Of a stretch of 58,059 nucleotides of DNA, positions 5,336 through 56,314 are shown one piece after another (the first letter of the stretch is position 1; every line of letters begins with the position of its first letter). The position numbers and the translations under genes were made by a program. The stretch spans positions 3,439 through 61,497 of the forward strand of contig JAQWAS010000002.1 of the NCBI GenBank assembly GCA_028707495.1, given 5' to 3'. The notes under the pieces are model-generated. The model did not search any database. It had not been told where the DNA came from and saw nothing but the letters and a program-made list of their open reading frames with translations. The stretch comes from Patescibacteria group bacterium. GTDB taxonomy: Bacteria; Patescibacteriota; Patescibacteriia; UBA2591; JAQWAS01.

Positions 5336-5337
5336 AT

Positions 5338-6484: not shown

Positions 6485-6485
6485 T

Positions 6486-7142: not shown

Positions 7143-7269
7143 TTTTTATTTTTTTATTTTTTAAAACTTATTCAATATTATACTAAAAAATTAAGACGAA
7201 AACAAGATAATAAAATAAAATTCTCTGAATTACAAAAACTCGAGGGATAAGATTCAAAGATACACAAGG

Positions 7270-7585
7270 TTTTGTCATCCTAAATTATTTTTGTTATCCT
7301 GAATTTATTTCGGGATCTGGAATCAAGTGAAGTATTTCAATTAAAAATCAACATTGTGAGTATCAACAGATGCTGAAACAAGTTCAGCATGACACCTTAA
7401 ATAAGTGCCATTGTAAATCCCTACCAAACCGATGGACTAAAAAATCTATTGAGACTTGTCATTTCAAAGAAACGGTAGTGACTGAAAGATCCTTTCAACG
7501 TTGTTATTAAAAAACAAAAAAAAACTAACTGTAAAAATAAATTCAAGGGATCTCTCCCTGCCGAATCGGCGGGTCGAGATGACAA
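7270..7585. repeat. hairpin-repeat cluster 2 (same family)
   Basis: Units lie at 7293-7318 (gttatcctgaatttatttcgggatct), 7369-7393 (inverted, gatgctgaaacaagttcagcatgac), 7458-7492 and 7547-7583 (inverted). A partial copy lies at 7273-7283. Confidence 0.8.
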
Positions 7586-7640
7586 AAATAAAAATTACGT
7601 TTTTACATTCTAATATATTCTGTTTCTCTATTTTTTAAGT

Positions 7641-7670
7641 TTGTGCGTTTAAATGTTTATATGCTATAAT
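7641..7670 (+). promoter_or_regulatory. candidate promoter of the 7702-14740 operon
   Basis: TTGTGC (7641-7646), an 18-nt spacer, then the extended -10 element TGcTATAAT (7662-7670). Confidence 0.4.
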
Positions 7671-7701
7671 AAAATATAATTAATTTTTAAAAAATAAACC
7701 T

Positions 7702-8022
7702 ATGTTAGAAACTAGCAAAGACGTTTTATATTTAGTCATTGCTTTTTGTGTTTTATGGCTAACCATTTTTATGTGTTGGACTTTATATTATTTTTTAATT
7801 ACCATCAAAACCACCAAAGAAATTTTTCAAACCGTTAAAGAGCGCGTCTATGAAGTTAGTGACTTAATCAAAACCGTCAAAAATAAAATTGAACGTATTG
7901 CTGTGCCCTTTACCGTAGTCGCGGAAACTGTTAAACAAATCGTGCCCTTGATTAAAAAATTTACTAATTCTGAGGAACAAAAAGACAAAAAAACTAAAAC
8001 CACCAACAAAAAGAAAAAATAA
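7702..8022 (+). CDS. hypothetical small membrane protein with a Lys-rich tail
   Basis: One TM helix is followed by a predicted helical region and a KKTKTTNKKKK tail. The stop lies 2 nt before dnaE. Confidence 0.6.
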   Translation: MLETSKDVLYLVIAFCVLWLTIFMCWTLYYFLITIKTTKEIFQTVKERVYEVSDLIKTVKNKIERIAVPFTVVAETVKQIVPLIKKFTNSEEQKDKKTKTTNKKKK

Positions 8023-8024
8023 TT

Positions 8025-11000
8025 ATGGAGTTTGTTCACCTACATGTCCACTCGCATTATAGTCTTCTTGATGGTCTAGGTAAATTAGACGATTTAATTG
8101 CTCAGGCTCAAGAATACAACATGCCAGCTTTAGCCCTAACTGATCATGGGGTTATGTATGGCGTGATTGAATTTTATAAAAAAGCGACAGCTGCTGGCAT
8201 TAAACCAATTATTGGCGTTGAAGCTTATCTAGCTCGCAATGGTTTAGATAAAAAAAGAGCCAAACTTGATGAAAAACCTTATCATCTAATTTTGTTAGCT
8301 AAAAACCAACAAGGCTATCAAAATTTAATTAAATTAACTTCCATCGCCCATTTGGAAGGTTTTTATTATAAACCACGTATTGACTGGGAACTTTTAGAAA
8401 AATATCACGAAGGTTTAATTGCTTTATCCGCTTGTATTCAAGGTGAAATTCCCCAAGCCATTTTAGAAAATCAACTTTCGCAAGCCGAAAAATTAGCTTT
8501 AAAATATCAAAAGCTTTTTGGCGCTAATAATTTTTATTTAGAAGTCCAACACCATTCCGGCAATCAAGATCAAGAAAAGGTTAATAATTTTATTTTTGAA
8601 ATTGCCAAAAAAAATCATATCCCAGTCGTTGCCACCAACGACGTTCATTATGTCAATTCTCATGATGCCGAAGCTCAAGACATTCTTTTGTGCATGCAAA
8701 CCAAAAAGAAAAAACAAGATCTTGATCGAATGAATTTAATGGATCACGATTTGTCTTTCCGTTCGCCACATAATATGATTGAAGGTTTTAAGGATCACCC
8801 AGAAGTTATTGAAAATTCAGTCAAGATTGCTAAAATGTGTGATTTAAAAATTGAATTGGGCGAAATTAAATTACCTTATTTCGAAGTTCCAAACGATAAA
8901 ACTGCTGATGAATATTTAACTGATATTTGCCAACAAAACATTGTACAACGCTATCCCCTGATTCGCTACGAAAAAGAAATCGCTGAAGATAAAAAAAAAC
9001 CAAGTGACTTAGAAAAACAGATTCAAGAGCGTTTAAAATATGAATTGGAAATTATCAAAAAAACCGGCTATGCTTCTTATTTTTTAATTGTTCAAGACTT
9101 TGTCAACTGGGCCAAAAAAAATAACATCGTAGTTGGGCCTGGTCGCGGTTCAGCTGCTGGTTCAATCGTCTCTTATTTAACTAATATCACCGAAATCGAT
9201 CCCTTAAAATACGATTTAGTTTTTGAAAGATTTTTAAATCCAGAAAGAATTTCCATGCCTGATATTGACTTAGATTTTGCCGATACGCGACGCAATGAAG
9301 TTGTTAGCTATGTTGAAAATAAATATGGCAAAGATCATGTCAGCCAAATTATTACTTTTGGTACTATGGCCGCTCGAGCAGCCGTTCGCGACGTTGGTCG
9401 CGTTTTAGATTTTAGTTATAGTTTTTGCGATAAACTTGCTAAATTAATTCCTCAATTCACTAATTTAAAAGATGCTCTAACCAAAGTGACTGAACTTAAG
9501 GAATTATATAATTCCAATGATGATGCTAAAAAAATTCTCGACATGGCTCAAAAATTAGAAGGTGTCGCTCGACACGCTTCGACTCATGCCTGTGGGGTTT
9601 TAATTACCCGTGAACCCCTTGATCATTATGTCCCATTACAAATTGCCTCGCGAGGTGACGAGACTATTGTCTCGCAATACGACATGATATGTGTTGAATC
9701 TTTAGGTCTGTTAAAAATGGATTTCTTGGGTTTAAAAAATTTAACCTTAATTGAAAATTGTCTTGAAATTATTGATAAAACTCAGGATCAAAAAATCAAT
9801 TTAGAAACTTTATCTTTAGAAGATTTAAAAACTTATCGCCTTTTACAAGACGGACAAACTACCGGCGTTTTTCAGCTAGAAAGTTCCGGCATGAAACGAT
9901 ATTTAAAAACGTTGAAGCCAACCAATATGGATGATATTATTGCTATGGTCGCTCTCTATCGACCTGGACCGATGCAATTTATTCCAGATTATATCAATGG
10001 TAAACATGGCAAACGTCAAGCTACTTATTTACATCCTAAATTAAAACCTATTTTAGATAAAACTTACGGCATTGCAGTCTACCAAGAACAAGTTTTACAA
10101 ATCGCCCGCGATTTAGCCGGCTTTACTCTTGGCGAAGCTGATATTTTACGTAAAGCTGTCGGTAAAAAAATTGCTGAACTTTTAAAACAACAAAAAGATA
10201 AATTTGTTAAAGGTTGTGTCAAAAATAATATTAAAAAAGAAACAGCTTTAAAAATTTTTGAATTTATTGAACCCTTTGCTGGTTATGGTTTTAATAAAGC
10301 CCATGCAACCTCTTATGCCACTATCGCCTATCAAACAGCTTATTTAAAGGCTAATTTTCCGGTTGAATTTATGGCTTCTCTTTTAACCGCCGATGAAAAT
10401 GATAGTGATCGAGTTGCTATTGAAATTGAAGAATGTAAAAACATGGGCATTGAAGTTCTTCCGCCAGATATTAATGAAAGTTTTAAAAATTTTACTGTCG
10501 TTGTTGGTACCGAAAATCCAACCATTCGCTTTGGACTTTTAGCCATTAAAAATGTTGGTTCAACTATCGTTGATATTATTATTAAAGAAAGAAAAACCAA
10601 TGGTTTATATCAAAATTTAACCGACTTTTTAAAACGCGTTCAAAGTAAAGATCTAAATAAAAAATCATTAGAAAGTTTGATTAAATCTGGCGCTTTAGAT
10701 AATTTTGGCGAACGCAATCAATTGTTGGAAAATATTGAAAATTTACTTAACTTTGTGCGTAATATTCAAAAGGAAAAAATTAATGGCCAAAAAAGTCTGT
10801 TTGGTGTTTTGCCCGTAAATAACACTGAACCAAATTTAAAATTAAAATCAGCTCGACCAGCGACTCGCAAAGAAAAATTGTCATGGGAAAAAAATCTTTT
10901 GGGTTTGTACGTTTCAGAACATCCCCTAAAAAAAGTTTTTGAAATAGCCCAAAAAGACATTGTCAGTTGTTCTATGATTGAAGAGCAAAAAACAAAAAGC

Positions 11001-11363
11001 TATATTAAAATTATTGGCGTAGTGACTAAAATAAAAAAAATTATTACCTCGAACAATAAAACAATGTTATTTGTTAAAATTGAAGATTCGAGTGGCAGTT
11101 TAGAGGTAATCGTCTTCCCAGATGTTTATAATAATAATAAAAATCTTTGGGAAGAAGAAAAAACCCTGGCTATTATTGGCAAGGTTTCTGACAAGGATGG
11201 CACTAAAAAAGTTATTGTCGCTGAAGCTAAAAAAATTGAACCCGATGATCCAGACAGCTCTCTTAAAACCATTCTTTCCCTTCAACCACCAGCCAACAAT
11301 GGCTTTAAATACGCCAATCAATCTGGCTGGGCAGTAAGCTATAATAGTTTTTATACTTATTAA
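8025..11363 (+). CDS. dnaE: DNA polymerase III alpha subunit
   Basis: The N-terminal PHP domain begins FVHLHVHSHYSLLDG. The polymerase core motifs (PDIDLDF, GLLKMDFLGL) and an OB-fold C-terminus are present. Confidence 0.97.
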   Translation: MEFVHLHVHSHYSLLDGLGKLDDLIAQAQEYNMPALALTDHGVMYGVIEFYKKATAAGIKPIIGVEAYLARNGLDKKRAKLDEKPYHLILLAKNQQGYQNLIKLTSIAHLEGFYYKPRIDWELLEKYHEGLIALSACIQGEIPQAILENQLSQAEKLALKYQKLFGANNFYLEVQHHSGNQDQEKVNNFIFEIAKKNHIPVVATNDVHYVNSHDAEAQDILLCMQTKKKKQDLDRMNLMDHDLSFRSPHNMIEGFKDHPEVIENSVKIAKMCDLKIELGEIKLPYFEVPNDKTADEYLTDICQQNIVQRYPLIRYEKEIAEDKKKPSDLEKQIQERLKYELEIIKKTGYASYFLIVQDFVNWAKKNNIVVGPGRGSAAGSIVSYLTNITEIDPLKYDLVFERFLNPERISMPDIDLDFADTRRNEVVSYVENKYGKDHVSQIITFGTMAARAAVRDVGRVLDFSYSFCDKLAKLIPQFTNLKDALTKVTELKELYNSNDDAKKILDMAQKLEGVARHASTHACGVLITREPLDHYVPLQIASRGDETIVSQYDMICVESLGLLKMDFLGLKNLTLIENCLEIIDKTQDQKINLETLSLEDLKTYRLLQDGQTTGVFQLESSGMKRYLKTLKPTNMDDIIAMVALYRPGPMQFIPDYINGKHGKRQATYLHPKLKPILDKTYGIAVYQEQVLQIARDLAGFTLGEADILRKAVGKKIAELLKQQKDKFVKGCVKNNIKKETALKIFEFIEPFAGYGFNKAHATSYATIAYQTAYLKANFPVEFMASLLTADENDSDRVAIEIEECKNMGIEVLPPDINESFKNFTVVVGTENPTIRFGLLAIKNVGSTIVDIIIKERKTNGLYQNLTDFLKRVQSKDLNKKSLESLIKSGALDNFGERNQLLENIENLLNFVRNIQKEKINGQKSLFGVLPVNNTEPNLKLKSARPATRKEKLSWEKNLLGLYVSEHPLKKVFEIAQKDIVSCSMIEEQKTKSYIKIIGVVTKIKKIITSNNKTMLFVKIEDSSGSLEVIVFPDVYNNNKNLWEEEKTLAIIGKVSDKDGTKKVIVAEAKKIEPDDPDSSLKTILSLQPPANNGFKYANQSGWAVSYNSFYTY

Positions 11364-11392
11364 TTTTAATCATAATTTATAAAATAAAAAAT

Positions 11393-12622
11393 ATGGCTTC
11401 TCAAAATTCAAAAAATAAAGATAAAGATAAAAAAAATCCTAATCAAAACAGGACTCGCAACATTTATAAAGCCATTGCTTTAAGTTTTATTGTGGCCACT
11501 CTTGTTTTGATTTTATTAATTGTTAATTTTACTCTAGCGCGCGCCGATATCACCTTAACACCTAGCCAACAAAATATTCAAGCTGAACCACAAATTACCA
11601 TTGTCGATAGCTCTACCCAACAAGATTTAACCTTGCAAGGCAAATTTTTTTCTGTAACTCGTAGCTTGGAAAAAACTTTTTTTCCGTCAGAAGCAAAAAC
11701 TCAACCAGCTCAAATTACTGGTCAAATCACAATTTATAATAATCATACCGAAGATCAAACGCTCATCGCCACCACTCGTTTTCTATCACCCGACAATATT
11801 CTTTATCGGTTGGAAGAAACAGTGACCGTAGGTGCCGGACAAAATTTAACCGTTCAGATCTCCTCTGATCAAACTGGCCCAACTAATCAAGTTAAAGCTA
11901 AAACACGCTTTACCATTCCAGGCTTGCGAACCAATTTGCAAGACAAAATCTACGGTGTTAATTCTGAGGCACTTGCTGGTGGTGAAAAAAAATTAGGCAT
12001 TATTTCACAAACGGACATTGATCAAGCCAAACAACAACTTGAAACTGAACTTAATCAAACGATTATGAATGAAATTGAAGACACTTTTAACAATCAAAAA
12101 CGTAACCCTTTTGAAGAAACAGATCAAGCTGTCGAAAATTTAGCTAATTATGAATTACTTAGTAATATTAGCCAAAAAGAAATTTTAAACACCCAAACCG
12201 ATGCTGAAGCCGGCCAAACTAGTGATGGTTTTAAAATTAATTTAGAAATGCGAATAACGGTTTTAGCGATCGAAAAAAATCAACTCTTTAATTTAACCTT
12301 GAATCAACTCGAAAAACAAATTGACGCCAATCAACATCAACTTTACTTACAGCGCGATAGTTTTAATTACGAATTAGAAAGTTGTAATTTTGAAACTAAA
12401 ACTGCCAAAATTAAAACTCAACTTCAAGCTGGCATAACCCTAAAACCCGATAGTTTAATTTTAGATAAAGATAAATTGATTGGACTTTCTAAAAAGGGCG
12501 TGCTAAAATATTTTGAGTCATATGATCAAATTGATAAAGTTGAAATTAAATTTAAACCCTTTTGGGTTTTTCAAGTGCCACGCTTAAAAAATCATATTCA
12601 AATTAATATTCAACAACCATAA
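11393..12622 (+). CDS. hypothetical membrane-anchored protein (409 aa)
   Basis: The N-terminus is basic and followed by a single TM helix. The remainder is a Gln/Thr-rich, beta-rich ectodomain. I cannot assign a family. Confidence 0.7.
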   Translation: MASQNSKNKDKDKKNPNQNRTRNIYKAIALSFIVATLVLILLIVNFTLARADITLTPSQQNIQAEPQITIVDSSTQQDLTLQGKFFSVTRSLEKTFFPSEAKTQPAQITGQITIYNNHTEDQTLIATTRFLSPDNILYRLEETVTVGAGQNLTVQISSDQTGPTNQVKAKTRFTIPGLRTNLQDKIYGVNSEALAGGEKKLGIISQTDIDQAKQQLETELNQTIMNEIEDTFNNQKRNPFEETDQAVENLANYELLSNISQKEILNTQTDAEAGQTSDGFKINLEMRITVLAIEKNQLFNLTLNQLEKQIDANQHQLYLQRDSFNYELESCNFETKTAKIKTQLQAGITLKPDSLILDKDKLIGLSKKGVLKYFESYDQIDKVEIKFKPFWVFQVPRLKNHIQINIQQP

Positions 12623-12629
12623 AAATTAT

Positions 12630-13001
12630 ATGTCATTACCTGAAAAATTCAACTCATCAAATTTTTCACCAGAACAAAATAAACAGCCAAATACTGATCT
12701 AAGAATTATCAAAGAAATTGTAGAAGAAGATGGAACCGTTAAAAAACTTTTTTCTGATCCAGAGGGTTTTATTTGTAAAACAGAAATTATTCAAACAAAC
12801 GGTACGATGTTACAAAGATTCAATAATCAAGAAGGACATACTATAAAATTAATTCGAACCACCCCTATGCCTAAAAATTATTCTTTAGAACAATATTATA
12901 TTCCAGATCCTGAAAATGAAGGTAAATTTATTGAATCAGAATATTATATTAAAGATGCTGGTGGAAAAATAATGGAATATGAAAATTTATTAGATATTTA
13001 A
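12630..13001 (+). CDS. hypothetical protein (123 aa)
   Basis: Intact ORF packed tightly between the 409-aa ORF and thrS. Confidence 0.6.
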   Translation: MSLPEKFNSSNFSPEQNKQPNTDLRIIKEIVEEDGTVKKLFSDPEGFICKTEIIQTNGTMLQRFNNQEGHTIKLIRTTPMPKNYSLEQYYIPDPENEGKFIESEYYIKDAGGKIMEYENLLDI

Positions 13002-14799: not shown

Positions 14800-14877
14800 T
14801 TACCCAAACGACCAGAACAGACTCCTCCTTTCGTGTTAACAATCAAACCGGGTTAACTGTTTCATAGTAGTTGAGAG

Positions 14878-14912: not shown

Positions 14913-14944
14913 TAAAAAAGGGATCTGTTTTACAACAGAACCCC
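14913..14944 (-). terminator. intrinsic terminator of cassette 2
   Basis: The minus-strand sequence GGGGTTCTGTTGTAAAACAGATCCC is followed by TTTTTTATTT. Confidence 0.55.
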
Positions 14945-14966
14945 TATATGCATCATTGTTTTAGTA

Positions 14967-15884
14967 TTAGAGACTTGACGCGATATCCTCCTTAATTTCA
15001 GAGGGTGTATCATCCCGATCCAACAACCATTTTTTGTCGTCGAGAGTGAGTAAATGTTTAAATCTACGGTAAACAGGCTTCTTGACAGAGAAACTGGACG
15101 ACCAGCAAAGTATGGTCATTAGGCTCTTATGCTCTGGATTTTCCCAATTATCGATCATATCCCCTACAATTTCAGGTGGAGCTTGCCCGCATCCATCACA
15201 CCTCTTCAATATCCCTACTCTTTCTGATTCGCCGAAAAGGGGCTTGAATTTATTGTAGATAGATATTTTTATGGAAGGTGGTACAAGAATATAACATATA
15301 ATATCTACTAAATTCTTGGGTTCTGGATTCTGCCAATTTTCAATAATATCCTCTGCTATTTCTGGCAGAATCCATCCTACATGAAAATCCTTAAAGAGCC
15401 CCGCTCTTTCTGATTCGCCGAAAAGGTGCTTGAATTTATTGTAGAAAGATATTTTTGTTGGTGTTGGAACACCCTGATCTCCTATTGTTTCTAATATGCT
15501 CGTATACTCTGGAGTTTCCCAACTATCAAGAATGTCCTCTACAACCTCTAAGGGGGTGTATTCATGTTTAAGTAATTCCACACGGTCCGTTTCGGTAAGG
15601 CGTGGTCTTAGATATCGCCAGGCTTGTCTTTTTTTTCTATTAAACCGGTCCGATAAAGTCACTTCCCTTATTATGCCAATATAAACTTTATTAGCATAAG
15701 AATATCCAGCCACCATTTCCCAAAGTCTTTTTTTCTGCCAGGGTAAGATGAAAATCGAAAATCCCGGTTCAGTAAAAACGTCTATAGCTCGCTCTTCATC
15801 ATTGAGTCTCTTTCCGGCAATCCGATAGGCCATTTGATTAAAAACAATTGTTGCTATCAATAGTCCTAAGATTAAACCACACAT
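14967..15884 (-). CDS. hypothetical membrane-anchored repeat protein (cassette 2, 305 aa)
   Basis: AGGAGG lies 4 nt upstream of the ATG. The protein has an N-terminal TM helix and at least 3 internal repeats of about 62 aa (YNKFKxLFGESERxG...PPEIxxDxIxNWxNPE). The region is GC-richer than its neighbours. Confidence 0.75.
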   Translation of the reverse strand: MCGLILGLLIATIVFNQMAYRIAGKRLNDEERAIDVFTEPGFSIFILPWQKKRLWEMVAGYSYANKVYIGIIREVTLSDRFNRKKRQAWRYLRPRLTETDRVELLKHEYTPLEVVEDILDSWETPEYTSILETIGDQGVPTPTKISFYNKFKHLFGESERAGLFKDFHVGWILPEIAEDIIENWQNPEPKNLVDIICYILVPPSIKISIYNKFKPLFGESERVGILKRCDGCGQAPPEIVGDMIDNWENPEHKSLMTILCWSSSFSVKKPVYRRFKHLLTLDDKKWLLDRDDTPSEIKEDIASSL

Positions 15885-15941
15885 TTTTCCTCCTCGTTTT
15901 TTCTTTTGTCAATGATACAGATTATTTTTTTATTTCTATTA

Positions 15942-15970
15942 ATAATATCATAATTATAATTTAATGTCAA
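15942..15970 (-). promoter_or_regulatory. sigma70-like promoter of cassette 2
   Basis: On the minus strand, TTGACA (15970-15965), a 17-nt spacer, then TATTAT (15947-15942). Confidence 0.5.
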
Positions 15971-22599: not shown

Positions 22600-22649
22600 T
22601 TTTGATTTTTATTTTTTATATTATAATTATAACATTTTTAAAAATACTT

Positions 22650-23005
22650 GTCATTAATCGTCTCCATTACCTCCACCTCCCTATCTCTTTTTAGTCATTG
22701 TCCAACTCTCTTTCGTCGCCCCTGGCTCTAGTCCGCCGAATCGGAGGATGACCAGGGATCTAGAATTAATTTAACCTGGATTCCCAATCAAGTTGGGAAT
22801 AACGTAGAGAAAATAGGAATGACGGTTTGGAAGGGTGTCGTTGCGAGGAGTCCGCCGATTCGACGGACTCGCAAAGACAGATTAAAATAGTGTCATTGCG
22901 AGGAGGAGGTAATCCGACGACGTGGCAATCCCGTAAATCAACGCCTTGCGCGCCGATCCCCGAAATTGCTTCCCTGCCGAATCGGCGGGTCGCAAGGATA
23001 AGGTA
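22650..23005. repeat. hairpin-repeat cluster 3 (same family, largest)
   Basis: Units lie at 22719-22760, 22775-22803 (cctggattcccaatcaagttgggaataac), 22837-22879 (gtcgttgcgag..ctcgcaaagaca), 22892-22931 (gtcattgcgagg..ggcaatcc) and 22956-22996. Fragments lie at 22649-22700. Confidence 0.8.
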
Positions 23006-23007
23006 TC

Positions 23008-24732
23008 CTACATTTTCTCCGGCATTTCAATTCCTAATAAATTCAAACCTGTATTTAAAACACGATAAACCGCTTGAATTAAATTCAAACGCCATATTTT
23101 TCTCTCCTCGTTTTCAGCTTCTAAAATTGAACAAGCCTCATAAAAACTACTAAAATCTTTAGCTAACTTTAATAAATAACTAGTTAAAATAGCTGGATTA
23201 TAATCTTGACTAGCTTTTCGGATAATCAATTGAAAATCATATAAATCTTGAATTATTTGCCATTCATTTGGTTGTAAATTTTTTAATTCAGGTAAATTTT
23301 TATTAGATTTAACATCTGTTTTATTTAGAATACTTTTAATCCTGACACCGGCGTATTGTAAATAAGGGCCCGTATCGCCTTCAAATTGAGTTGCCTTAAC
23401 TGAATCATAATCGTTGTTAATTTCTGGTGAAAATTTTAACATACCAAATTTTAATGAAGCCAACGTAATTTGATCAGCAATTTTATCGATCTCATCTTTA
23501 ATCACGTTGTGACGTTTTTCTATTTCTAAAACAGCTATCTTTTTTATTTTATAATATAAATCTTTAGCCGAAACAACCTGACCACTGCGTGAAGCTATTT
23601 TTTGTCCATCAAGAGTTAAAAAACCGTAGGCCAAGTGATAACAATTTTGAGCTTGTTTAAAACCCATTAATTCTAAAGTTTTAAATAATTGCTTTAAATA
23701 TAATTCCTGTCTAACGTCAACCACATAAATTGATTGATCAATTTTAAATTTTTTAAATTTAATCTGGGCTAAGGCCAAATCTTTAGTTGAATATAAACTT
23801 GAACCATCTGATTTTAATAATAGAAATGTGCCTAAATTATACTTTTCTAAATCTACTACAATCGCCCCTTCTGATTTTTTAGCTATTCCCTGTTTAACTA
23901 ATAATTGAACTAAATTTTTACCAGGTTTTTCCATGTCTGATTCAAAAAATTCTTCATCAAATTTTATTTTCAATAAATCATAAATTTTAGCAAACTCTTT
24001 CAAGCTTAATTCGCAAGTTGTCTTCCAAATTCTTTTTAAATCTTTGTCCCCTGCTTCTATTTTTTTTAAAGTGTCATCAACTTGTTTTTTAAATTCCGGT
24101 TGTTCTTCTAATTTTAAATTTGCCTTAACATAAAGTTCGGCTAGCCAACTATCAATATTTTCTATGGGAATTTTTTGATCTGTAAGGTTGGTAAAATACC
24201 ATAACCATTTAGCTACATGGGCTCCGATATCGCCGTGATAATTTGCTCGTATAATTTTATAACCATCAAACTCCAACAAATTTGCCACACTGGCTGACAA
24301 AAATATATTACGTAAATGACCAACATGCAAGGCTTTATGCGTGTTGGCCTGGCCAAAACCTTCAATCATAATTTTATCTTTTTTCTTTACGCCTTGTCCG
24401 TAATTTTCATTTTTTAAAACATCACTTAAAATTGCCCGACTAAATTTATTCTTATTAAGATAAAAATTAACATACGGACCGGCCACGGCTATTTTCTCTA
24501 CTAAATCATTTAATTTTAAACTACCAATTAAATTCGCTAATTCATTCGGTTTTAAATCAACCTTTCTCGCTAAATCGAAACATTTTAAACTCAAATCACC
24601 CAGCTGGATTTGTGGGGGTTTATTAAAAATAATAACTAAATCATCTCCTGATAAAGAAGGAAATTTTTCAATTAAAAAATTTTTTATTTTATGTTCAATT
24701 TCTTGAACAAACTTATAACTTGAATACATCAT
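23008..24732 (-). CDS. argS: arginine--tRNA ligase
   Basis: The class I HIGH-like motif NTHKALHVGHLRN, an ArgRS N-terminal additional domain and a DALR-type C-terminus are present. Confidence 0.95.
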   Translation of the reverse strand: MMYSSYKFVQEIEHKIKNFLIEKFPSLSGDDLVIIFNKPPQIQLGDLSLKCFDLARKVDLKPNELANLIGSLKLNDLVEKIAVAGPYVNFYLNKNKFSRAILSDVLKNENYGQGVKKKDKIMIEGFGQANTHKALHVGHLRNIFLSASVANLLEFDGYKIIRANYHGDIGAHVAKWLWYFTNLTDQKIPIENIDSWLAELYVKANLKLEEQPEFKKQVDDTLKKIEAGDKDLKRIWKTTCELSLKEFAKIYDLLKIKFDEEFFESDMEKPGKNLVQLLVKQGIAKKSEGAIVVDLEKYNLGTFLLLKSDGSSLYSTKDLALAQIKFKKFKIDQSIYVVDVRQELYLKQLFKTLELMGFKQAQNCYHLAYGFLTLDGQKIASRSGQVVSAKDLYYKIKKIAVLEIEKRHNVIKDEIDKIADQITLASLKFGMLKFSPEINNDYDSVKATQFEGDTGPYLQYAGVRIKSILNKTDVKSNKNLPELKNLQPNEWQIIQDLYDFQLIIRKASQDYNPAILTSYLLKLAKDFSSFYEACSILEAENEERKIWRLNLIQAVYRVLNTGLNLLGIEMPEKM

Positions 24733-28431: not shown

Positions 28432-28851
28432 ATGTCCAAATTAAAACAAAACAATTTATCCCACGACAAAAGCCATTGGCGTTGGCTAGTCAACGTTTGG
28501 ACTGTTATAACTTTAAGTATTTTTATTTTAGATTTTATTTCTGGTGAAAGTCGGCTAATAGCTAGTCGTTGTACTTTGGGTATCATTTATATTGCTGTTT
28601 TAAGTATTTATGTTGGTACTAAAGAATTTGACCGCTGGATCACTCGTCAATATGCCTCGCGTTATGCTGGTGAAAGATTCGTTATTCTTTGGACAGCGCT
28701 TATTTTAATTATGGTGGTCTTGACAATTTTTAATCCAAGATATACAATACCTACAGATGTGAGTACGGTTTATATTACGGTTTTAAGTATTTTTGCTATC
28801 TCCCGTCGCTCGCGCTACCTTTATCAATCTAAGAATAAAAAAATAAATTGA
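28432..28851 (+). CDS. hypothetical membrane protein (139 aa)
   Basis: About four hydrophobic helices are present. The ORF ends in TGA. Confidence 0.6.
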
Positions 28852-30269: not shown

Positions 30270-31118
30270 ATGACTATTCAAAAAATATTCGACCAATCAA
30301 TTCAAAAATTAAAATCTCACCAGATCTCCTCAGTCCAACTTGATGCTGAGGTGCTTTTATCTTTTGCTATAAATAAATCCAAAGAACACCTCTATTCTCA
30401 TCCGGAAGAAAAAATTAATTTTAAACAATGGTTTAAATTTAAAAAATTAATTAATAAAAGAATAAAAAAATGGCCAGTCGCTTATTTAATTGGTTATAAA
30501 GAATTTTATAATTTAAAATTTAAAGTTGATCCTCATGTTTTAATTCCTCGCCCAGAGACTGAATTACTAGTTGACCAAGCTTTACAAATCTACAAGCAAT
30601 TAATAATAAGCAATCAGCAGTTAGCGATAAGCGACATCGGTACTGGTTCAGGTTGTATTATAATCTCTATTGCTAAAAACTTGTCTTCTAATTCAATATC
30701 TAAATTTTATGCCACGGATATTTCTAAGTCAGCTCTTAAAATAGCTAAACTTAATGCCCAACAACACCAAGTTTTAAATAAAATTAATTTCTATCAAGGC
30801 AATCTTTTGGAACCGCTTAAAAATAAAAAAATTGACTTATTAATCGCCAATTTGCCTTATTTAACTCAAGAAGAATTTAAAAACGTACCTCGCGAACCCC
30901 AATCAGCACTAATTTCCCAAAATCAAGGCTTGCAACACTATCAACAATTATTTTCACAGATCAAACAACTTAATTATCAACCACAATATATTTTAATTGA
31001 AATTGGTTTTAATCAAGCTGTAAATTTAAAAAATATTATACTTCACCACTTGCCTCAAGCTAAAATAAAAGTTTTTCAAGATTTAAGTGGCAAAAATAGA
31101 ATTTTACAAATAAGTTAA
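30270..31118 (+). CDS. prmC: release-factor glutamine methyltransferase PrmC/HemK
   Basis: The SAM motif DIGTGSGCI is present. The catalytic motif reads NLPY instead of NPPY. The gene is adjacent to prfA. Confidence 0.9.
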   Translation: MTIQKIFDQSIQKLKSHQISSVQLDAEVLLSFAINKSKEHLYSHPEEKINFKQWFKFKKLINKRIKKWPVAYLIGYKEFYNLKFKVDPHVLIPRPETELLVDQALQIYKQLIISNQQLAISDIGTGSGCIIISIAKNLSSNSISKFYATDISKSALKIAKLNAQQHQVLNKINFYQGNLLEPLKNKKIDLLIANLPYLTQEEFKNVPREPQSALISQNQGLQHYQQLFSQIKQLNYQPQYILIEIGFNQAVNLKNIILHHLPQAKIKVFQDLSGKNRILQIS

Positions 31119-31143
31119 ATTTTTAAAAAAATAATTTGATATT

Positions 31144-31180
31144 AAAAAAGCCGAGGTTAAAACCCGGCTTTGTGTTTTTT
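31144..31180. terminator. terminator hairpin shared by prmC and cassette 3
   Basis: AAAGCCGAGG-ttaaaa-CCCGGCTTT is followed by GTGTTTTTT on the plus strand. Confidence 0.6.
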
Positions 31181-31198
31181 GAAAGGATAATTGGACTC

Positions 31199-31888
31199 CT
31201 AGCGCACATCTTTGGCATATTCGAAAGGCTTTTTTTGTTTACATATCGGACATTCCGATTTGGGACAAGAATTCCATTCTTCTCCTTTAAAATTCAGAAT
31301 GACGTAGATAGGAACCTCGGAACCTGGAAGTTCTTTTTCAAGAAAATCCTTAATGTTTTGAATAGCCCTGTCGTTTCTGGTAGCAAAAATACAAATAGCC
31401 GATAAAAGTGCCTCGTGCTCCTTGACTATAGAGATGCATTGATTGATGCTTCCACCTGTAGTTGTTACGCTCGCGACTATTACCACTCTCTCACTTGGTA
31501 ATAGGTTTTGACCAGCTCTTAATTTTTTTGTAGTCTCTCCCTTTTTATCTGTTAGAGCCTCAACAATTCTCGTGTTCATTTTTTCATTTAGTGTGCGAGC
31601 TACATCAAAGCCTAAAACTAACGAACGATTAGATATAGTAAGGATAGCGCCTATTTTTTTTAGTCGCCCCTTCTTTATCCACCGAACTATGTCATCGCTT
31701 ATTGTAGTTATAACAAACGGCCATTGAGCAATTCTGTAAAAGCAGAAAAAGCCTGAGGTATGTTCGCCACATATTAGTTCATAATGGCCATCAATCATTA
31801 TTGCTCCTGTTTTCTCCAACATCTCCATAACTTCATCTGGTGTAAGGTCTGATTTCGGATTTAATTCAAAGTTAACTTGTTCTTTCAT
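31199..31888 (-). CDS. type I phosphoribosyltransferase-like protein with a C-terminal CxxC pair (cassette 3)
   Basis: The OPRT-like N-terminus reads LEKTGAIMIDGHYELICGEHTSGFF. The PRPP-loop-like segment VVIVASVTTTGGS has A-S where the acidic pair would be. The C-terminus reads CPKSECPICK. GAGAGGA precedes the ATG. An in-frame ATT at 31933 lies 3 nt after an AGGAGG. Confidence 0.75.
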   Translation of the reverse strand: MKEQVNFELNPKSDLTPDEVMEMLEKTGAIMIDGHYELICGEHTSGFFCFYRIAQWPFVITTISDDIVRWIKKGRLKKIGAILTISNRSLVLGFDVARTLNEKMNTRIVEALTDKKGETTKKLRAGQNLLPSERVVIVASVTTTGGSINQCISIVKEHEALLSAICIFATRNDRAIQNIKDFLEKELPGSEVPIYVILNFKGEEWNSCPKSECPICKQKKPFEYAKDVR

Positions 31889-31949
31889 TTTATCCTCTCT
31901 TATTTTAATTGTTTTCTTGTTAAAGAACGTAATTGTCCTCCTAAAATTA

Positions 31950-33794: not shown

Positions 33795-33822
33795 TTGACA
33801 AAGATAAAATACCTGCTAAAAT
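33795..33822 (+). promoter_or_regulatory. sigma70-like promoter of cassette 4
   Basis: TTGACA (33795-33800), a 16-nt spacer, then TAAAAT (33817-33822). Confidence 0.55.
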
Positions 33823-33870
33823 GTTAATAACTATATTTCTTTTTAAAATCAACAAAACAAGGAGGAACAA

Positions 33871-34356
33871 ATGACTGAGGGCTATTTATTATTGGCGCAA
33901 ATCATCAAAACAGGCAAATTGTCGCCAGATAAAATTTTTGGATTTTGGGAGAGAACCCATGATCCAACAATCGGCGCGGCCGCCATTTTATCCGGCGTAT
34001 TATCGCTAGACAAAATGCTCCAACTCCGTGAAGAAGCTAATTGCCATGAAGTTGATTTGGCAATCGTTCGGTCGGGCAAACTTATGCCAGACGAAATGAT
34101 TAAAATCGCGGAAAACCGTAACCATTGGGAAATTTGGGGAATGGTTGCTGATCAGTTTGTGTCGCAAGGGTTCTCTAGTGATGAAATGTTCAATTTTTGG
34201 CTAAAAAATCCAAATATAATATTTGGATGGATGCTTATTGAGAAGAACTTGCTATCACCTGACCAGATGGCCGAGATCTTCTTTATAACAGACGATGAAA
34301 AGGCCTATAGACTCATTATGAACTTATTGAGTGACAATAAAAACAAAACCGAGTAA
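33871..34356 (+). CDS. hypothetical helical-repeat protein (cassette 4, 161 aa)
   Basis: AAGGAGG lies 5 nt upstream of the ATG. There are four repeats of about 35 aa that begin (S/M)(P/S)D(K/E/Q)(I/M). The region is GC-richer than its neighbours. Confidence 0.7.
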   Translation: MTEGYLLLAQIIKTGKLSPDKIFGFWERTHDPTIGAAAILSGVLSLDKMLQLREEANCHEVDLAIVRSGKLMPDEMIKIAENRNHWEIWGMVADQFVSQGFSSDEMFNFWLKNPNIIFGWMLIEKNLLSPDQMAEIFFITDDEKAYRLIMNLLSDNKNKTE

Positions 34357-34375
34357 AATATTACTCATAACTCTA

Positions 34376-34402
34376 GGCGATACAACAATGTGTCGCCTTT
34401 TT
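34376..34402 (+). terminator. intrinsic terminator of cassette 4
   Basis: GGCGA-tacaacaatgtg-TCGCC is followed by TTTTT. Confidence 0.65.
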
Positions 34403-34532
34403 AATAAAATCTTTCTACCCTGCCCATAGCAGGGATTATTTATCACAAAACAAAACCGTCGCCATAAACGACGTAGAAATTTGTTAAATTGTTAAATTGT
34501 TTAAACGTTCGTCTCTTTTAAAATCTTTTATT

Positions 34533-35654: not shown

Positions 35655-36497
35655 CTAAAAAGAAACTACATTATGACTGTCTAAAATGTTAACTTCCGGT
35701 TGCACCACTACCTGTACCACCAACGGCAAATTTTCATTAAATGCCATTTCTAAATTTTTCTTTTCACCGCTCATTAATTGACTTACGGTTAAACTATTAA
35801 TCCCAACCACTCGGCCAGATTGATATAAAATAACTTTAATTTCCAAATCATAAAATCCGTACAAAGTATTATTTCTTAAACTAAACTTAACTCGAGAAAT
35901 ATCTAAATTTTCAACACTCTTATTGTTTAAATATTCTATATCATCAATAATAAAATCACTTGATTTGATTTGCCACAATGATTTTTGATTATCAATCCTC
36001 TGCCAAATAATATTGGTAATTTCGAGCTGTGGATTAATAATTTTAGCTTGGAAACGATGATTAAAAATAGCGACTATTTTTTTCTCTTGAGGTAAAATAA
36101 AACCTTGTTGATATTGAGTCACGCCCCCTTGATAAATAAATCGATAATCAAAACTTTTGACTGCCCATTTTGAATTTAAATTTTCAACCTGGGCAATTAA
36201 ATCGCATTCACCCTGGCCAGCGTATTCTACTACCTGAAAGCCTGTTGTTTTTAAATCTTGTGGATGATTACGCTGTTTCCAGAGTTCAAAATTAATATAA
36301 TTTTGCGATAAATTAACTAAAGTATCTTTATAATTAGGTATACTAACTAATAAAATAATTATGGTGATTAATAAATATAAAATCAAAACTCCATCTAAAA
36401 AAATAAAAATAGCTTTAGCTATCTTCTTAATTTTTTCAGCATTGGTTGATAACCAATAAGCTATAGATAATTTTTTATCCTGGTCATAAAAAGACAT
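35655..36497 (-). CDS. hypothetical membrane-anchored protein (280 aa)
   Basis: One TM helix is followed by a beta-rich domain. The gene sits immediately downstream of secY, where adk and map usually lie. Confidence 0.65.
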   Translation of the reverse strand: MSFYDQDKKLSIAYWLSTNAEKIKKIAKAIFIFLDGVLILYLLITIIILLVSIPNYKDTLVNLSQNYINFELWKQRNHPQDLKTTGFQVVEYAGQGECDLIAQVENLNSKWAVKSFDYRFIYQGGVTQYQQGFILPQEKKIVAIFNHRFQAKIINPQLEITNIIWQRIDNQKSLWQIKSSDFIIDDIEYLNNKSVENLDISRVKFSLRNNTLYGFYDLEIKVILYQSGRVVGINSLTVSQLMSGEKKNLEMAFNENLPLVVQVVVQPEVNILDSHNVVSF

Positions 36498-48815: not shown

Positions 48816-49154
48816 TTATTCAAGTGGTTCAGGGTAATAAATTTCTTGACTGGTAATTTCAGAAAAATATTTTTCTTTAAAACTCTGACTTTTATTATTT
48901 TTATTATTTAATTCTAAATCCAACCCGTCTAAAGCTTCTTCTTCTTCCAAGGTTTTCAACAGTGCAATTTCTCTGTTTATTTTATCTAATAGTTGTTGCC
49001 TTGTCAAGTCTAAACCTGAATTATTTGGGGATAACATTTTTTTGTAAACTTCCATACCCAGAATAACACAGGCTGGCCGGTCATCTTTTAAAACAATTAA
49101 TTTGTCTTGCGGTTGAATTAAATTAATAATTTCATTTATTGATGATTCTCCCAT
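48816..49154 (-). CDS. hypothetical protein with a Phd/YefM-antitoxin-like N-terminus (112 aa)
   Basis: The N-terminus reads INEIINLIQPQDKLIVLKDDRPACVILGMEVYKKML, followed by an acidic/coiled tail. The gene lies between fusA and tuf. Confidence 0.6.
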   Translation of the reverse strand: MGESSINEIINLIQPQDKLIVLKDDRPACVILGMEVYKKMLSPNNSGLDLTRQQLLDKINREIALLKTLEEEEALDGLDLELNNKNNKSQSFKEKYFSEITSQEIYYPEPLE

Positions 49155-53064: not shown

Positions 53065-53195
53065 ATATTTTATTTTAACATAAAATTCTAAAATTACAAA
53101 TTCGCAATCCTAAATCCGAAATAAATTTTAAATTAAAAATTTTAAAATCCAAAATTAAATACAAGCATTTGTTGTATTACGAAGGTACTAAGTTA

Positions 53196-53224
53196 TTGAC
53201 AAAAAAACCATTACAAATTAAGAT
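53196..53224 (+). promoter_or_regulatory. sigma70-like promoter of cassette 5
   Basis: TTGACA (53196-53201), a 17-nt spacer, then TAAGAT (53219-53224). Confidence 0.5.
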
Positions 53225-53298
53225 GTCTATATTGTACATCAACAATTTAACTTCGAAAATCAAACAAAAAACGTGTTCCCTAAAAACAAGGAGGAAAA

Positions 53299-53868
53299 AT
53301 GTTATACAGAATCCCAATCATTAAGAGATCTATGCAAATTGGTCAGGGATCGAATGTAAAATGTCGTCACATCGACCAGGTTGGTATCTTTGTCTGTTAT
53401 GATACAGAGAATCAACTTAATTTGGAAATCATCCGATACCACCTACCGGCTAAAACAAGAGGATTCCGTCTTGTTGAGGCTGATAACCCCAAGGAGGCGT
53501 TGGAAAAATTTTTCAATGAACAAGAAGGGGCTAAGATCGGTGGTGAGGGAGAAGAAAACAAAGCCCTATGGATTAATAGGGAAATTCCCATCCAAGAACT
53601 TCCCTCTTGTAAGTTATTACACAAAAACAAGAAGGGAGAATTCATCTGTGGAGAGCCCACAGAAGATGGATCAGGAGAAATCGGTATGTGCATACTAGAA
53701 GGAGATGATCCTCCTTCTTTTTGCCCCTTGTCTCCTTTCTTCGATCGGCTTTCCAAATTGGAGTTATCCGAATTAGAAAGGGGTGAAGGAAAAATACCAA
53801 CAGAAACAATCCAAGGGGGTTACCGACTCGTTAGACCTAAAGATATTATGACAACTTCACTCGCGTAA
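53299..53868 (+). CDS. hypothetical protein (cassette 5, 189 aa)
   Basis: AAGGAGG lies 4 nt upstream of the ATG. The region is GC-richer than its neighbours, and all three overlapping frames are open, which is a compositional effect. I recognise no motif. Confidence 0.7.
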   Translation: MLYRIPIIKRSMQIGQGSNVKCRHIDQVGIFVCYDTENQLNLEIIRYHLPAKTRGFRLVEADNPKEALEKFFNEQEGAKIGGEGEENKALWINREIPIQELPSCKLLHKNKKGEFICGEPTEDGSGEIGMCILEGDDPPSFCPLSPFFDRLSKLELSELERGEGKIPTETIQGGYRLVRPKDIMTTSLA

Positions 53869-53883
53869 GCGTGTAAAAAATAA

Positions 53884-53908
53884 GGCCGGCATCCGTCGGC
53901 CCTTTTTA
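53884..53908 (+). terminator. intrinsic terminator of cassette 5
   Basis: GGCCGG-catccg-TCGGCC is followed by CTTTTT. Confidence 0.65.
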
Positions 53909-53980
53909 TTATTTAAAAATTAATTTTTAAATTACCTAAATCTAAATGTTTATTTTAAAACCAACACCTAATGTGCTTAA

Positions 53981-54192
53981 CCCTGGATCCCGCATCAAGT
54001 GCGGGATGACGAACGCGTCATTCCCGGCTTAACCGGGAATCCAGTGTTAATCGCTTTTAACTTCTCTCTAAAAAATCTTTTAAATTTAACAAAGCTTATT
54101 CTAAAAAATAAGAATCCCCATATTAATTCTAGATCCCCAATCAAGTTGAGGATGACACAAAACCCTGGATCCCGCATCAAGTGTGGGATGAC
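53981..54192. repeat. hairpin-repeat cluster 4 (same family)
   Basis: Units lie at 53981-54010 and 54163-54192 (30 nt each, 29/30 identical, direct). Further units lie at 54017-54044 (opposite orientation) and 54131-54157. Confidence 0.85.
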
Positions 54193-54275
54193 GATTGAAG
54201 TTGTTTTTCTATTTTTATGTTTTTATGTTCTTTTGTCCTTTTGTTTAAATGTTTAAATGTTTATATGTACGGCTC

Positions 54276-54304
54276 TTGATTAAAATTTAAATCTACGCTA
54301 TAAT
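54276..54304 (+). promoter_or_regulatory. candidate rpmB promoter
   Basis: TTGATT (54276-54281), a 17-nt spacer, then TATAAT (54299-54304). Confidence 0.45.
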
Positions 54305-54336
54305 ATTTTCATAAATAATAATCTTATATAAATTAT

Positions 54337-54987: not shown

Positions 54988-55016
54988 AATAAAGAACAAC
55001 TTAGTTCTTTATTTTG
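54988..55016 (+). terminator. terminator of the DUF192 gene
   Basis: AAAGAAC-aactta-GTTCTTT is followed by ATTTTG. Confidence 0.5.
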
Positions 55017-55298
55017 TTCTTTAAAAGGAGGTCTATTATTTGTTCAACAAAACAAGGTCAAAAATTTTTAACATACCAACTTTGTGCTGGTGTAAAATCT
55101 GATCTCGTAGCTACTGCTTTTGGAAAATTCAACGTCGTAGAAAAGGGTGGATCTTTTATTCACACATCAACCAACACTCGAATTGCTAGCTGGGGAAACC
55201 TAGATCATACACATATTTGTGTAGATGTTGAAAATCCTCTTTCAAAAGCAATTGCGTATTTAATAGAACCATTTTCGCAAAAATCTGAGCCCGCTTAA
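55014..55298 (+). CDS. hypothetical protein (cassette 6); start codon uncertain
   Basis: The ORF-track start is the TTG at 55014, but AGGAGG (55026-55031) lies inside that ORF. The best-placed in-frame codon is the ATT at 55038, 6 nt after the SD. There is no in-frame ATG or GTG nearby. Confidence 0.55.
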   Translation: MFFKRRSIICSTKQGQKFLTYQLCAGVKSDLVATAFGKFNVVEKGGSFIHTSTNTRIASWGNLDHTHICVDVENPLSKAIAYLIEPFSQKSEPA

Positions 55299-55321
55299 TT
55301 AGCGGGCTTGACTCTTTTTTT
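55289..55321 (+). terminator. intrinsic terminator of cassette 6
   Basis: AGCCCGCT-taat-AGCGGGCT is followed by TGACTCTTTTTT. The stop codon lies in the loop. Confidence 0.65.
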
Positions 55322-55374
55322 AAAAAAGATTAAGATAATTGCAGAACATTTCAACTTAGATCACTGGAGGGAGA

Positions 55375-55623
55375 ATGAATTTTAGAATCAACTTTATGCA
55401 GAACAACGCACACATCAAAACGCCTAAAGACGTTGAACAAAAACTAGCCGAGATTGGCATAATTAAAGAAGGTAGAAATCTTTTTTATAAAGGCAAGGAG
55501 GTCGGCACCTTTGCCGTCGCCGGTATTTTCGTCTTTCAAATTTGCGAAACCTCTCCTTATTTTTTAGAGATTCAAAATCTGTTAGATTCCTTTACTATCC
55601 CAACAGATACTAGTTCTCCTTAA
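55375..55623 (+). CDS. hypothetical protein (cassette 7, 82 aa)
   Basis: GGAGG lies 4 nt upstream of the ATG. I recognise no motif. Confidence 0.6.
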   Translation: MNFRINFMQNNAHIKTPKDVEQKLAEIGIIKEGRNLFYKGKEVGTFAVAGIFVFQICETSPYFLEIQNLLDSFTIPTDTSSP

Positions 55624-56314
55624 GTCCAGCTCGTCTGGACTTTTTTATTTCAAAATCGCCTATTTTTAATCTTCTTAAATTTTTCAATGTCGCCGGATAA
55701 CCAAGTCTTCGACCAATCTCTTCACCTACCGAACGCGCATAAGTACCCTTACTACATCGCATTTCTACTTTTAAAATATAATTTTCTTTTTCTTTAAAAT
55801 AATCTAAAAGTTTTAAATAAAAAATTTCATTTTCTCTTTGGGGTGTTTTTATTTTAACTTTTTGGCGAGCGTATTCATAAAGTTTTTTACCATCAATTTT
55901 GATCGCTGAATAAATCGGCACAGCTAATTCAATTTTGCCTTTCATTTCTTGTAAAACTTTTTTAACTTCACTAATTAAAATTTTACTAACTTTTTTTTCG
56001 GCAATTATTTCCCCCTCCATATCACCGGTTTGAGTTTGTTTACCTAACAATATTTCCATTAAATAAGTTTTATCTAAATTTAAAAATTGGTTTAATTTCT
56101 TTGTACCGCTATTAACACCAATAATTAATAAGCCCGAAGCTAAGGGATCAAGTGTGCCAGCATGGCCCATTTTTTTTATATTTAACTTTTTGCGTAAAAT
56201 ACGAATTACATCAAAAGAGCTAATACCTTTGGGCTTATCAACAAAAAGTATATCTTCAATTGCTGAATTATAAAACTTTAATTTTAAATTTTTATTTTTG
56301 TTGAGTGATTTCAT
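55610..56314 (-). CDS. truB: tRNA pseudouridine-55 synthase TruB
   Basis: The ILFVDKPKGISSFDV and GHAGTLDPLASGLL motifs are present. I take the ATG at 56314 (MKSLNK...) as the start. It still overlaps the upstream methyltransferase gene by 23 nt. Confidence 0.9.
   Translation of the reverse strand: MKSLNKNKNLKLKFYNSAIEDILFVDKPKGISSFDVIRILRKKLNIKKMGHAGTLDPLASGLLIIGVNSGTKKLNQFLNLDKTYLMEILLGKQTQTGDMEGEIIAEKKVSKILISEVKKVLQEMKGKIELAVPIYSAIKIDGKKLYEYARQKVKIKTPQRENEIFYLKLLDYFKEKENYILKVEMRCSKGTYARSVGEEIGRRLGYPATLKNLRRLKIGDFEIKKSRRAGLKEN
55623..55648 (+). terminator. intrinsic terminator of cassette 7
   Basis: AGTCCAG-ctcgt-CTGGACT is followed by TTTTTT. The element is antisense to the last codons of truB. 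Confidence 0.65.

Follow-up and report, generated by a model that had tools for sequence, protein, structure and literature searches.

Strong Shine-Dalgarno sequences mark probable single-gene accessory cassettes in a Patescibacteria genome whose core genes lack them

The question raised by this locus is why, in the tiny genome of a groundwater-type bacterium whose core genes carry no recognisable Shine-Dalgarno (SD) sequence, a handful of isolated open reading frames (ORFs) should each be preceded by a strong one. The DNA concerned (referred to throughout as the window) is a stretch of 58,059 nucleotides (nt) from a Patescibacteria group bacterium (GenBank assembly GCA_028707495.1, contig JAQWAS010000002.1, positions 3,439 to 61,497), and the unit considered most closely, the focal cassette, occupies window positions 53196-53908 and encodes an uncharacterised protein of 189 residues. 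It is one of seven SD-led ORFs picked out in an earlier reading of the sequence (the original prediction), which proposed either acquisition from SD-using donors such as a host or phage, or a distinct regulon translated by a different mode of initiation. The answer reached here is that six of these ORFs, with the seventh as a doubtful member, are probably moron-like autonomous accessory cassettes, drawn from a mobile gene pool associated with the candidate phyla radiation (CPR), in which the SD has been maintained.

It is convenient to begin with the native regime. The window has 33% GC and a dense complement of housekeeping genes (dnaB, recR, rplU, dnaE, thrS, miaA, prfA, the S10-spc ribosomal cluster, fusA, tuf and rpsL/G), and when its M50 peptidase was used to query one genome per species the matches came only from Patescibacteria/CPR metagenome-assembled genomes (MAGs) of Magasanikbacteria-, Kuenenbacteria- and Parcubacteria-like affiliation, the top match having 62% identity. 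Scans of the whole 58-kb window for tRNA genes and Rfam families gave zero matches, which rules out known RNA genes as the identity of the GC-rich ORFs. SD strength was scored for 73 non-overlapping ORFs as the duplex energy of the 25 nt upstream when paired with the canonical 16S tail CACCUCCUUA. Among the 66 ORFs other than the seven candidates, none reaches -7 kcal/mol, at first and internal operon positions alike, and the upstream 25-mers are 87% A+T, so that the SD-less character first claimed for the core genes is upheld. The initiation profile of these 66 genes shows 50-67% A over positions -11 to -2 and T at -1 in 73%, while the clear ATG-start cassettes have A at -1. In several first-in-operon native genes (e.g. 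18114, 23008-24732, 29207) a TATAAT ends only 5-8 nt before the ATG, a placement which suggests that some native mRNAs may be leaderless. The description of the non-SD "group B" genomes of GeneMarkS-2 matches this regime (PMC6028130).

Against this background the seven candidates are quite distinct. Their mean SD duplex energy is -8.8 kcal/mol as against -1.15 kcal/mol for the 66 others (p=2e-5), with six of the seven lying between -7.5 and -11.8 kcal/mol, and the motifs are indeed present at each position originally given for them. They are also richer in GC (0.391 versus 0.328, p=1.6e-4) and in GC at third codon positions (GC3; 0.347 versus 0.231, p=8e-4), individual GC3 values being 0.33-0.45 in six of the seven where the native figure is 0.23 +/- 0.04. 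It had been suggested that the differences in SD and GC be checked by proper calculation, and both persist, although the actual GC range of the candidate ORFs, 35-43%, is lower than the 40-45% estimated by eye. As predicted, a hairpin with a U-run lies 3' of all seven (terminator scan, RNAfold), and six of the hairpins have free energies (dG) of -9.9 to -20.1. Sigma70-like promoters (TTGACA or TTGACT at -35 with a proper -10) were found before four of the seven, five having been originally recognised; it should be borne in mind that such matches are frequent in AT-rich DNA. Four times GGAGG-N3-8-ATG opens an ORF of 80 codons or more, where Markov simulations give an expectation of 0.01, whereas the bare motif, counted without the ORF condition, shows no excess (5 versus 3.6 in shuffles).

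Beyond a generic promoter and an A-flanked AGGAGG, there is no upstream motif common to all seven. A need for the SD arising from more strongly structured initiation regions in the cassettes was considered and rejected, the difference from native genes (-4.6 versus -3.5 kcal/mol) not being significant (p=0.22). At the level of 90% identity clusters all seven proteins are confined to this organism or its strains, with 1-3 members each; Pfam, PHROGs and PADLOC assigned no function to six of the seven, PHROGs gave nothing significant for any of them, and no common family or function was found among them, nor, in Pfam, any match to a ribosomal protein family including rpsU. Four further ORFs that likewise cannot be placed (11393-12622, 12630-13001, 28432-28851 and 35655-36497) have native GC and no SD, and thus being unplaceable does not by itself predict an SD.

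The case for insertion is clearest for the focal cassette, the components of which are as follows.

53196-53224, + strand: sigma70-like promoter, TTGACA, 17 nt, TAAGAT (consensus scan, 10/12 matches; inferred leader of about 68 nt).
53288-53294, + strand: Shine-Dalgarno sequence AAGGAGG, 4 nt 5' of the ATG (sequence; duplex with the CACCUCCUUA tail -11.4 kcal/mol).
53299-53868, + strand: focal ORF, 189 amino acids (aa), belonging to an uncharacterised family of about 190 aa (alignment, hidden Markov model search).
53884-53908, + strand: intrinsic terminator, GGCCGGC-ATCC-GTCGGCC followed by a T-run (terminator scan, RNAfold).
53065-54336, no strand: expanded divergent intergenic region between rpmB and the M50 peptidase gene, 1272 nt, containing the cassette and palindromes resembling repetitive extragenic palindromic (REP) elements (synteny with relatives).

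Of 66 informative loci from relatives, 57 have rpmB next to the M50 peptidase gene in divergent orientation, and the order M50-rpsL-rpsG-fusA-tuf-rpsJ downstream of them is conserved. The gap between the two genes in these relatives has a median of 76 nt and is below 400 nt in 55 of the 57, while in the window it is 1272 nt; by this comparison of orthologous intervals, of the kind originally suggested, the focal unit is an insertion into the rpmB-M50 gap. Core genes surround the other cassettes also, those found around cassettes in the window being rpmB, the M50 peptidase gene, rpsL, thrS, prmC, ftsW and similar. The sites of the six cassettes other than the focal one are rplU-mraY, thrS-miaB, prmC-DUF3048, L25-ftsW and DUF192-truB. 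The original prediction that no integrase or repeats would mark such insertions is right in that none of the ORFs in the window was recognised as an integrase (the unplaced ones having been compared with Pfam and the rest inspected) and no flanking direct repeats were found, but REP-like palindromes do adjoin the focal cassette at 53979, 54125 and 54161 (span 53979-54194).

Two observations on this part of the sequence may be added. Several long intergenic regions of the window (5026-5337, 7143-7701, 22600-23007 and 53940-54200) contain REP-like palindromes that are rich in GC and fall into two or more families (GGATCCCGCATCAAGTGCGGGATGACG, CCCTGCCGAATCGGCGGGTCG); Rfam has no match for them and about 100 related loci lack them, so that they appear to be specific to this genome. 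The nearest relative (L003) has at 8726-9343 an unrelated SD-led ORF (AAGGAG) of 205 aa, which lies beside rpmB in convergent orientation, has a terminator of its own and reaches a GC content of 0.54 where the locus has 0.36; a similar protein is encoded in L070 at 7718-8287.

As to the focal protein itself, a word-index search returned a single homolog, P0002, with 55% identity, and the alignment of the two from M1 confirms the SD-proximal ATG (53299) as the start. A full hidden Markov model search was far more productive, yielding 211 clusters at 50% identity, 150 of them with E <=1e-10, with members of about 180-200 aa; the family therefore numbers at least 211 clusters, and the protein is not the ORFan that it had been taken for. 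(Given that the word-index search missed this family, its "no homolog" results for two of the other candidates, 33871-34356 and the phosphoribosyltransferase (PRTase)-like ORF, are weaker than their face value.) The family alignment contains four invariant cysteines (C104, C117, C131 and C142) and an EWEGAKIGG...KALWI motif, and the Cys4 pattern would be in keeping with a zinc-binding module. The AlphaFold model is a confident one (predicted local distance difference test, pLDDT, 96.3), for which a fold search of PDB and BFVD found no significant neighbour; a PDB sequence search likewise gave no match, and the protein fell into no family of Pfam, PHROGs or PADLOC. In IMG/VR no relative turned up, whether the query was the single focal sequence or the family alignment.

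The family is informative chiefly through its genomic contexts. The metagenome loci recovered number nineteen (contigs named Hain-H41 and Hain-H51 among them), and in the larger of these the neighbours are SD-less core genes of CPR type (gyrB, thrS, dnaE, gatB, rplK, nusG), the thrS and dnaE products being 44-51% identical to those of the window; here the family members are stand-alone SD-led units, usually with a terminator. Although these metagenome copies have only 38-51% protein identity to the window copy, an SD (GGAGG, AAGGAG or GGGAGG, 5-8 nt before the start) is kept in 17 of the 18 examined. The GC content of the family gene is mostly 0.37-0.44 (0.31-0.44 overall) and largely independent of that of the contig. 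Two copies lie in tight co-directional clusters, L002 beside an RlaP nucleotidyltransferase gene and L084 with DUF5131 and NUDIX genes, which could be phage or island DNA. It is also seen that in many family leaders (L087, L089, L091-L096) a small conserved hairpin (e.g. GTGTTTAAATACAC) lies directly 5' of the SD, weaker in the window copy (TGTT...AACA); it could act as a leader-stabilising or regulatory stem.

A recurrent position of the family gene is against the 3' end of thrS, which it abuts in at least 8 of the 19 loci. In the most elaborate case, L095, the gyrB-thrS interval (5900-11460) holds an array of five or six single-gene SD-led cassettes, each with a common promoter, leader, SD and terminator, separated by spacers containing repeats of about 222 nt; at their core these repeats reproduce, in diverged form, the thrS C-terminus and its stop codon, and they also carry the common promoter. 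No integrase was seen in this array. Its relatives L091-L093 have fewer cassettes at the same gyrB-thrS site. Repeats of this kind are typical of the scar that would be expected from serial integration, or from homology-armed capture, at the end of thrS. In the window itself a different candidate, a cassette encoding a 305-aa protein, lies directly downstream of thrS, as family copies do elsewhere, and no duplicated thrS end or other flank repeat was found beside it. Its spacer also contains, between two hairpins, an orphan AAAGGAGGAG (14823-14832, - strand) with no start codon or ORF behind it, which may be a remnant of a lost cassette.

Turning to the clade as a whole, SDs are scarce in the relatives too, on ribosomal as on other core genes, and this holds even where the genome has 50% GC. 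All seven of the 16S 3' ends present in the fetched Patescibacteria loci read GGATCACCTCCTTTCT, i.e. the canonical CCUCC tail, and L031 combines this 16S end (GGATCACCTCCTTTCT) with a complete absence of SD on its core genes; Tsurumaki et al. report that the anti-SD has been lost in about half of Parcubacteria (PMC9297842). A multi-locus survey covered about 100 Patescibacteria loci and 1369 ORFs including the window, which is excluded from the percentages that follow. A strong SD, defined as -8 or lower, precedes 16.3% of singleton ORFs but 6.0% of widely shared ones, a 2.7-fold difference (Fisher p=6e-6) to be read with the knowledge that the singleton class contains spurious ORFs and that start calls are heuristic and imperfect. 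Among singletons, GC relative to the locus is +0.029 for those bearing an SD versus -0.003 for the others (p=4.5e-5). The window pattern is thus one instance of a broader tendency.

The explanation that we favour, which has somewhat better than even chances in our judgement, is that the six clear SD-led ORFs, and perhaps the seventh, are cassettes of the kind outlined at the start. Each would be a self-sufficient unit, with a sigma70-type promoter, a leader of 45-70 nt, a consensus SD, an ORF and an intrinsic terminator, and would have entered the space separating two conserved core genes as the chromosomal equivalent of a phage moron. Such units would move within a CPR-associated pool made up of other CPR genomes and perhaps of the phages of these. 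The SD would serve them as a portable, context-independent signal, still readable by CPR ribosomes that are SD-competent though largely SD-independent, and conserved in the cassettes where the core genes have dispensed with it; the raised GC and GC3 would go back to a source pool with some 37-44% GC, amelioration towards the 33% of this genome being incomplete. That the SD is kept across family members 40-55% identical, in SD-poor genomes, makes a maintained functional signal more likely than leftover baggage from a donor. The published account of Patescibacteria, in which horizontal gene transfer is common and mostly within the phylum (PMC12455944), agrees with the favoured explanation.

Several considerations weigh against it. 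Both the expression of the cassettes and their use of the SD are predictions from sequence, and the synteny test concerns the focal cassette, one of the seven. No flanking direct repeat, target duplication or pseudo-thrS scar was found beside any cassette in the window. The anti-SD evidence is that of relatives, the 16S gene of the source organism lying outside the window, and the survey carries the noise in its singleton class already mentioned. The seventh candidate, 55014-55298, has native GC3 (0.21), and its SD-proximal start would have to be an ATT, at 55035 or 55038; the AAGGAGG claimed for it is present, and its status as a cassette is uncertain. Finally, the focal protein is 40-50% identical to its CPR homologs, which is about the divergence shown by thrS and dnaE (44-51%), and given this it is possible that the gene has been inherited vertically over a long period and has merely been relocated.

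Among the rival explanations, one which we consider unlikely is that the seven form a native, lineage-specific regulon of resident genes for which the SD provides separate translational control, for instance through a sub-population of ribosomes with an exposed anti-SD. A precedent exists in the Bacteroidia, where SD-blind ribosomes autoregulate the SD-led rpsU through bS21 (PMC7797042, PMC13000453), and the retention of the anti-SD in SD-poor relatives, the conservation of the SD throughout the diverged focal family and the presence of unchanged cassettes in 99%-identical strains are all as such a regulon would have them. However, neither rpsU nor any other ribosomal gene is among the seven, their proteins have no family or function in common, they share no upstream motif past the generic promoter and SD, and the atypical GC3 and the break in synteny indicate acquisition.

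Improbable in our view is a recent transfer from a non-CPR donor that uses SD sequences, such as the bacterial host of this episymbiont or a phage, with SD, GC and terminator all representing unameliorated baggage. A rise in GC3 of about 0.12 is what this would produce, and the phage-like, tightly packed co-directional clusters around two family members (L002, L084) would fit it. Yet most members of the family lie among CPR core genes; IMG/VR scans with the 305-aa and PRTase-like proteins, as with the focal one, revealed no relatives, and there was no significant PHROG or BFVD match; with three of the cassettes as queries, 5.8 billion proteins yielded no near-identical copy from a donor; and an SD that persists at 40-55% protein identity is too old to be baggage. 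The proposal of horizontal acquisition is therefore sustained by the focal synteny break, the atypical GC3 of six of the seven and the patchy, position-variable focal family, but the host or phage donors originally suggested are not supported.

That the AGGAGG sequences are fortuitous and the ORFs not genes is very improbable indeed, since, for all that the raw motif count falls within shuffled expectation and several ORFs lack homologs, the excess of motifs opening long ORFs, the bracketing of the ORFs by promoter-like and terminator signals and their conservation in strains effectively exclude a chance origin of the focal unit, and the 211 clusters and high-confidence model of its product largely refute an artefact in that case.

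A much bolder form of the favoured explanation may be mentioned, although we regard it as doubtful. SD-poor Patescibacteria might keep a fully SD-competent ribosome mainly for the sake of a circulating pool of miniature single-gene cassettes. These would lack an integrase, would each comprise a promoter, a leader hairpin, an SD, an ORF and a terminator, and would be taken up one after another at hot spots, among them the 3' end of thrS. The SD would then be the "universal plug" of cassette exchange in the CPR and would mark a second translational tier, accessory as opposed to core.

The six candidates other than the focal cassette are listed here, with strand and supporting evidence.

3569-3910, + strand: cassette with AGGAG SD, 102-aa ORF (3579-3887) with an N-terminal transmembrane helix, and a weak hairpin followed by an extended T-run (SD duplex energy -8.7, ORF GC 0.434).
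14925-15970, - strand: cassette with TTGACA/TATTAT promoter (15970-15942), GAGGAGG SD, 305-aa ORF (14967-15884) with a transmembrane helix, and terminator (SD duplex energy -11.8).
31140-31945, - strand: cassette with GAGAGGA SD and an upstream AGGAGG, 229-aa PRTase-like ORF (31199-31888), and terminator (SD score, RNAfold).
33795-34410, + strand: cassette with TTGACA/TAAAAT promoter, AAGGAGG SD, 161-aa all-alpha repeat ORF (33871-34356), and terminator (SD duplex energy -11.4, GC3 0.45).
55025-55315, + strand: small ORF (55014 or 55038 to 55298) with an in-frame AAGGAGG and terminator, an uncertain member (sequence, RNAfold).
55308-55645, + strand: cassette with TTGACT/TAAGAT promoter, GGAGGG SD, 82-aa ORF (55375-55623), and terminator (SD duplex energy -9.8).

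Some details of these may be of use. The 305-aa ORF has an internal 160-nt direct repeat at 15204-15549 (73% identity, 186-nt spacing), encoding tandem units of about 62 aa behind the N-terminal transmembrane helix. The PRTase-like ORF scores 23.6 bits against PF00156, below the cut-off of 26.3, and gives a weak match (E=3.7e-8) to the orotate phosphoribosyltransferase in PDB entry 4PAW; in the word-index search it matches only the copy in a 99%-identical strain, where the cassette is retained. For 33871-34356 the same search found no homolog among the 5.8 billion proteins, and its model is an all-alpha helical repeat with no specific fold neighbour and nothing significant in PDB or BFVD. In the 82-aa ORF a strain variant, M8T, establishes the ATG at 55375 as the start and rules out the annotated downstream Met. 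The public annotation of the source had in fact started 55375-55623 at this internal Met (75 aa) and 53299-53868 at M12 (178 aa), and had omitted 55014-55298; the mis-called starts are consistent with a gene finder trained on an SD-less majority.

A few other features of the window may be recorded. Close to the PRTase-like cassette, comparison of prmC with the contig of a 99%-identical strain (L083) places 29 of 37 differences over 3.6 kb within a patch of about 220 nt (window 30569-30791), which looks like a recombination patch; prmC as a whole accounts for 33 of the 37, 16 of them synonymous and 17 non-synonymous, and there is near identity in the genes on either side and in the PRTase-like cassette. 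The fusA-tuf spacer (48816-49154) is a second variable hot spot, occupied in the window by a 112-aa Phd/YefM-like ORF and in relatives (L031 14350-18854, L007, L008, L004, L011) by different DNA 1.6-4.5 kb long, which in L031 includes a 16S rRNA gene. At the beginning of the window (1-224) a 97-nt unit (GAGCTATAGGGGCTTAATTATG...) with a GC-rich hairpin (CCGCCGGCTGGCGG) occurs in 2.3 head-to-tail copies of 100% identity, and could be either a real tandem repeat or an assembly artefact.

Full-text literature searches found no description of a class of SD-led accessory genes in the CPR. The class offers a handle on why the anti-SD stays conserved in lineages whose core genes skip the SD, the SD-led minority here being accessory cassettes and not rpsU as in the Bacteroidia, and also on how streamlined episymbiotic genomes gain genes, namely as apparently autonomous one-gene units at recurrent hot spots. 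In practical terms, a filter combining SD and GC3 may serve as a cheap marker of recently acquired genes in SD-poor MAGs, and would be useful because standard annotation mis-called the starts of two such genes. The focal family, with its confident fold lacking a structural neighbour and its four invariant cysteines, would lend itself to functional study.

It remains to compare the cassettes with known systems. The phage moron, a concept due to Hendrix and Juhala, is an autonomous promoter-gene-terminator unit lying between conserved phage genes (PMC3594210). Like morons, the cassettes are single genes of diverse content with their own terminator, in four of the seven a promoter-like site, and a GC content unlike that of their neighbours, and the focal one is literally "more DNA", lying between two genes which relatives have side by side. 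They differ in lying in a bacterial chromosome among ribosomal and housekeeping genes, with no phage genes nearby and no viral homologs found, and in being marked by an SD in an SD-poor genome, a trait outside the definition of a moron.

In the Bacteroidia, translation is SD-blind, the anti-SD is sequestered by bS21, bS18 and bS6, and a lone strong SD is found on rpsU (PMC6847099, PMC7797042, PMC13000453). The resemblance to this system, and to "group B", lies in core genes that are SD-less with A-rich leaders, both first and internal in operons, in a canonical anti-SD kept in the clade (as seen in relatives) and in the small number of genes with a strong SD. The phylum is a different one, of course, and the SD-led genes here are accessory and atypical, none of them being rpsU; the native motif of the window has a strong U at -1.

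In accretion involving cis-mobilisable elements (CIMEs) and integrative and conjugative elements (ICEs), integrative elements pile up in tandem behind a conserved gene, at its 3' end. The L095 array, with its repeats carrying diverged thrS 3' ends, is reminiscent of this, unlike it though in showing no integrase, while in the window no target end is duplicated. Integron cassettes are a more distant parallel, given that the units here have promoter-like sites of their own, that neither integrase nor attC was seen and that no flanking repeat is shared in the window. Lastly, the cassettes resemble the atypical (horizontally transferred) genes recognised by composition-based gene finders (PMC6028130) in their deviant GC and GC3, lineage-specific distribution and mis-called starts, and are set apart from them in that their GC lies above the native level and is coupled with a switch in the ribosome-binding signal.

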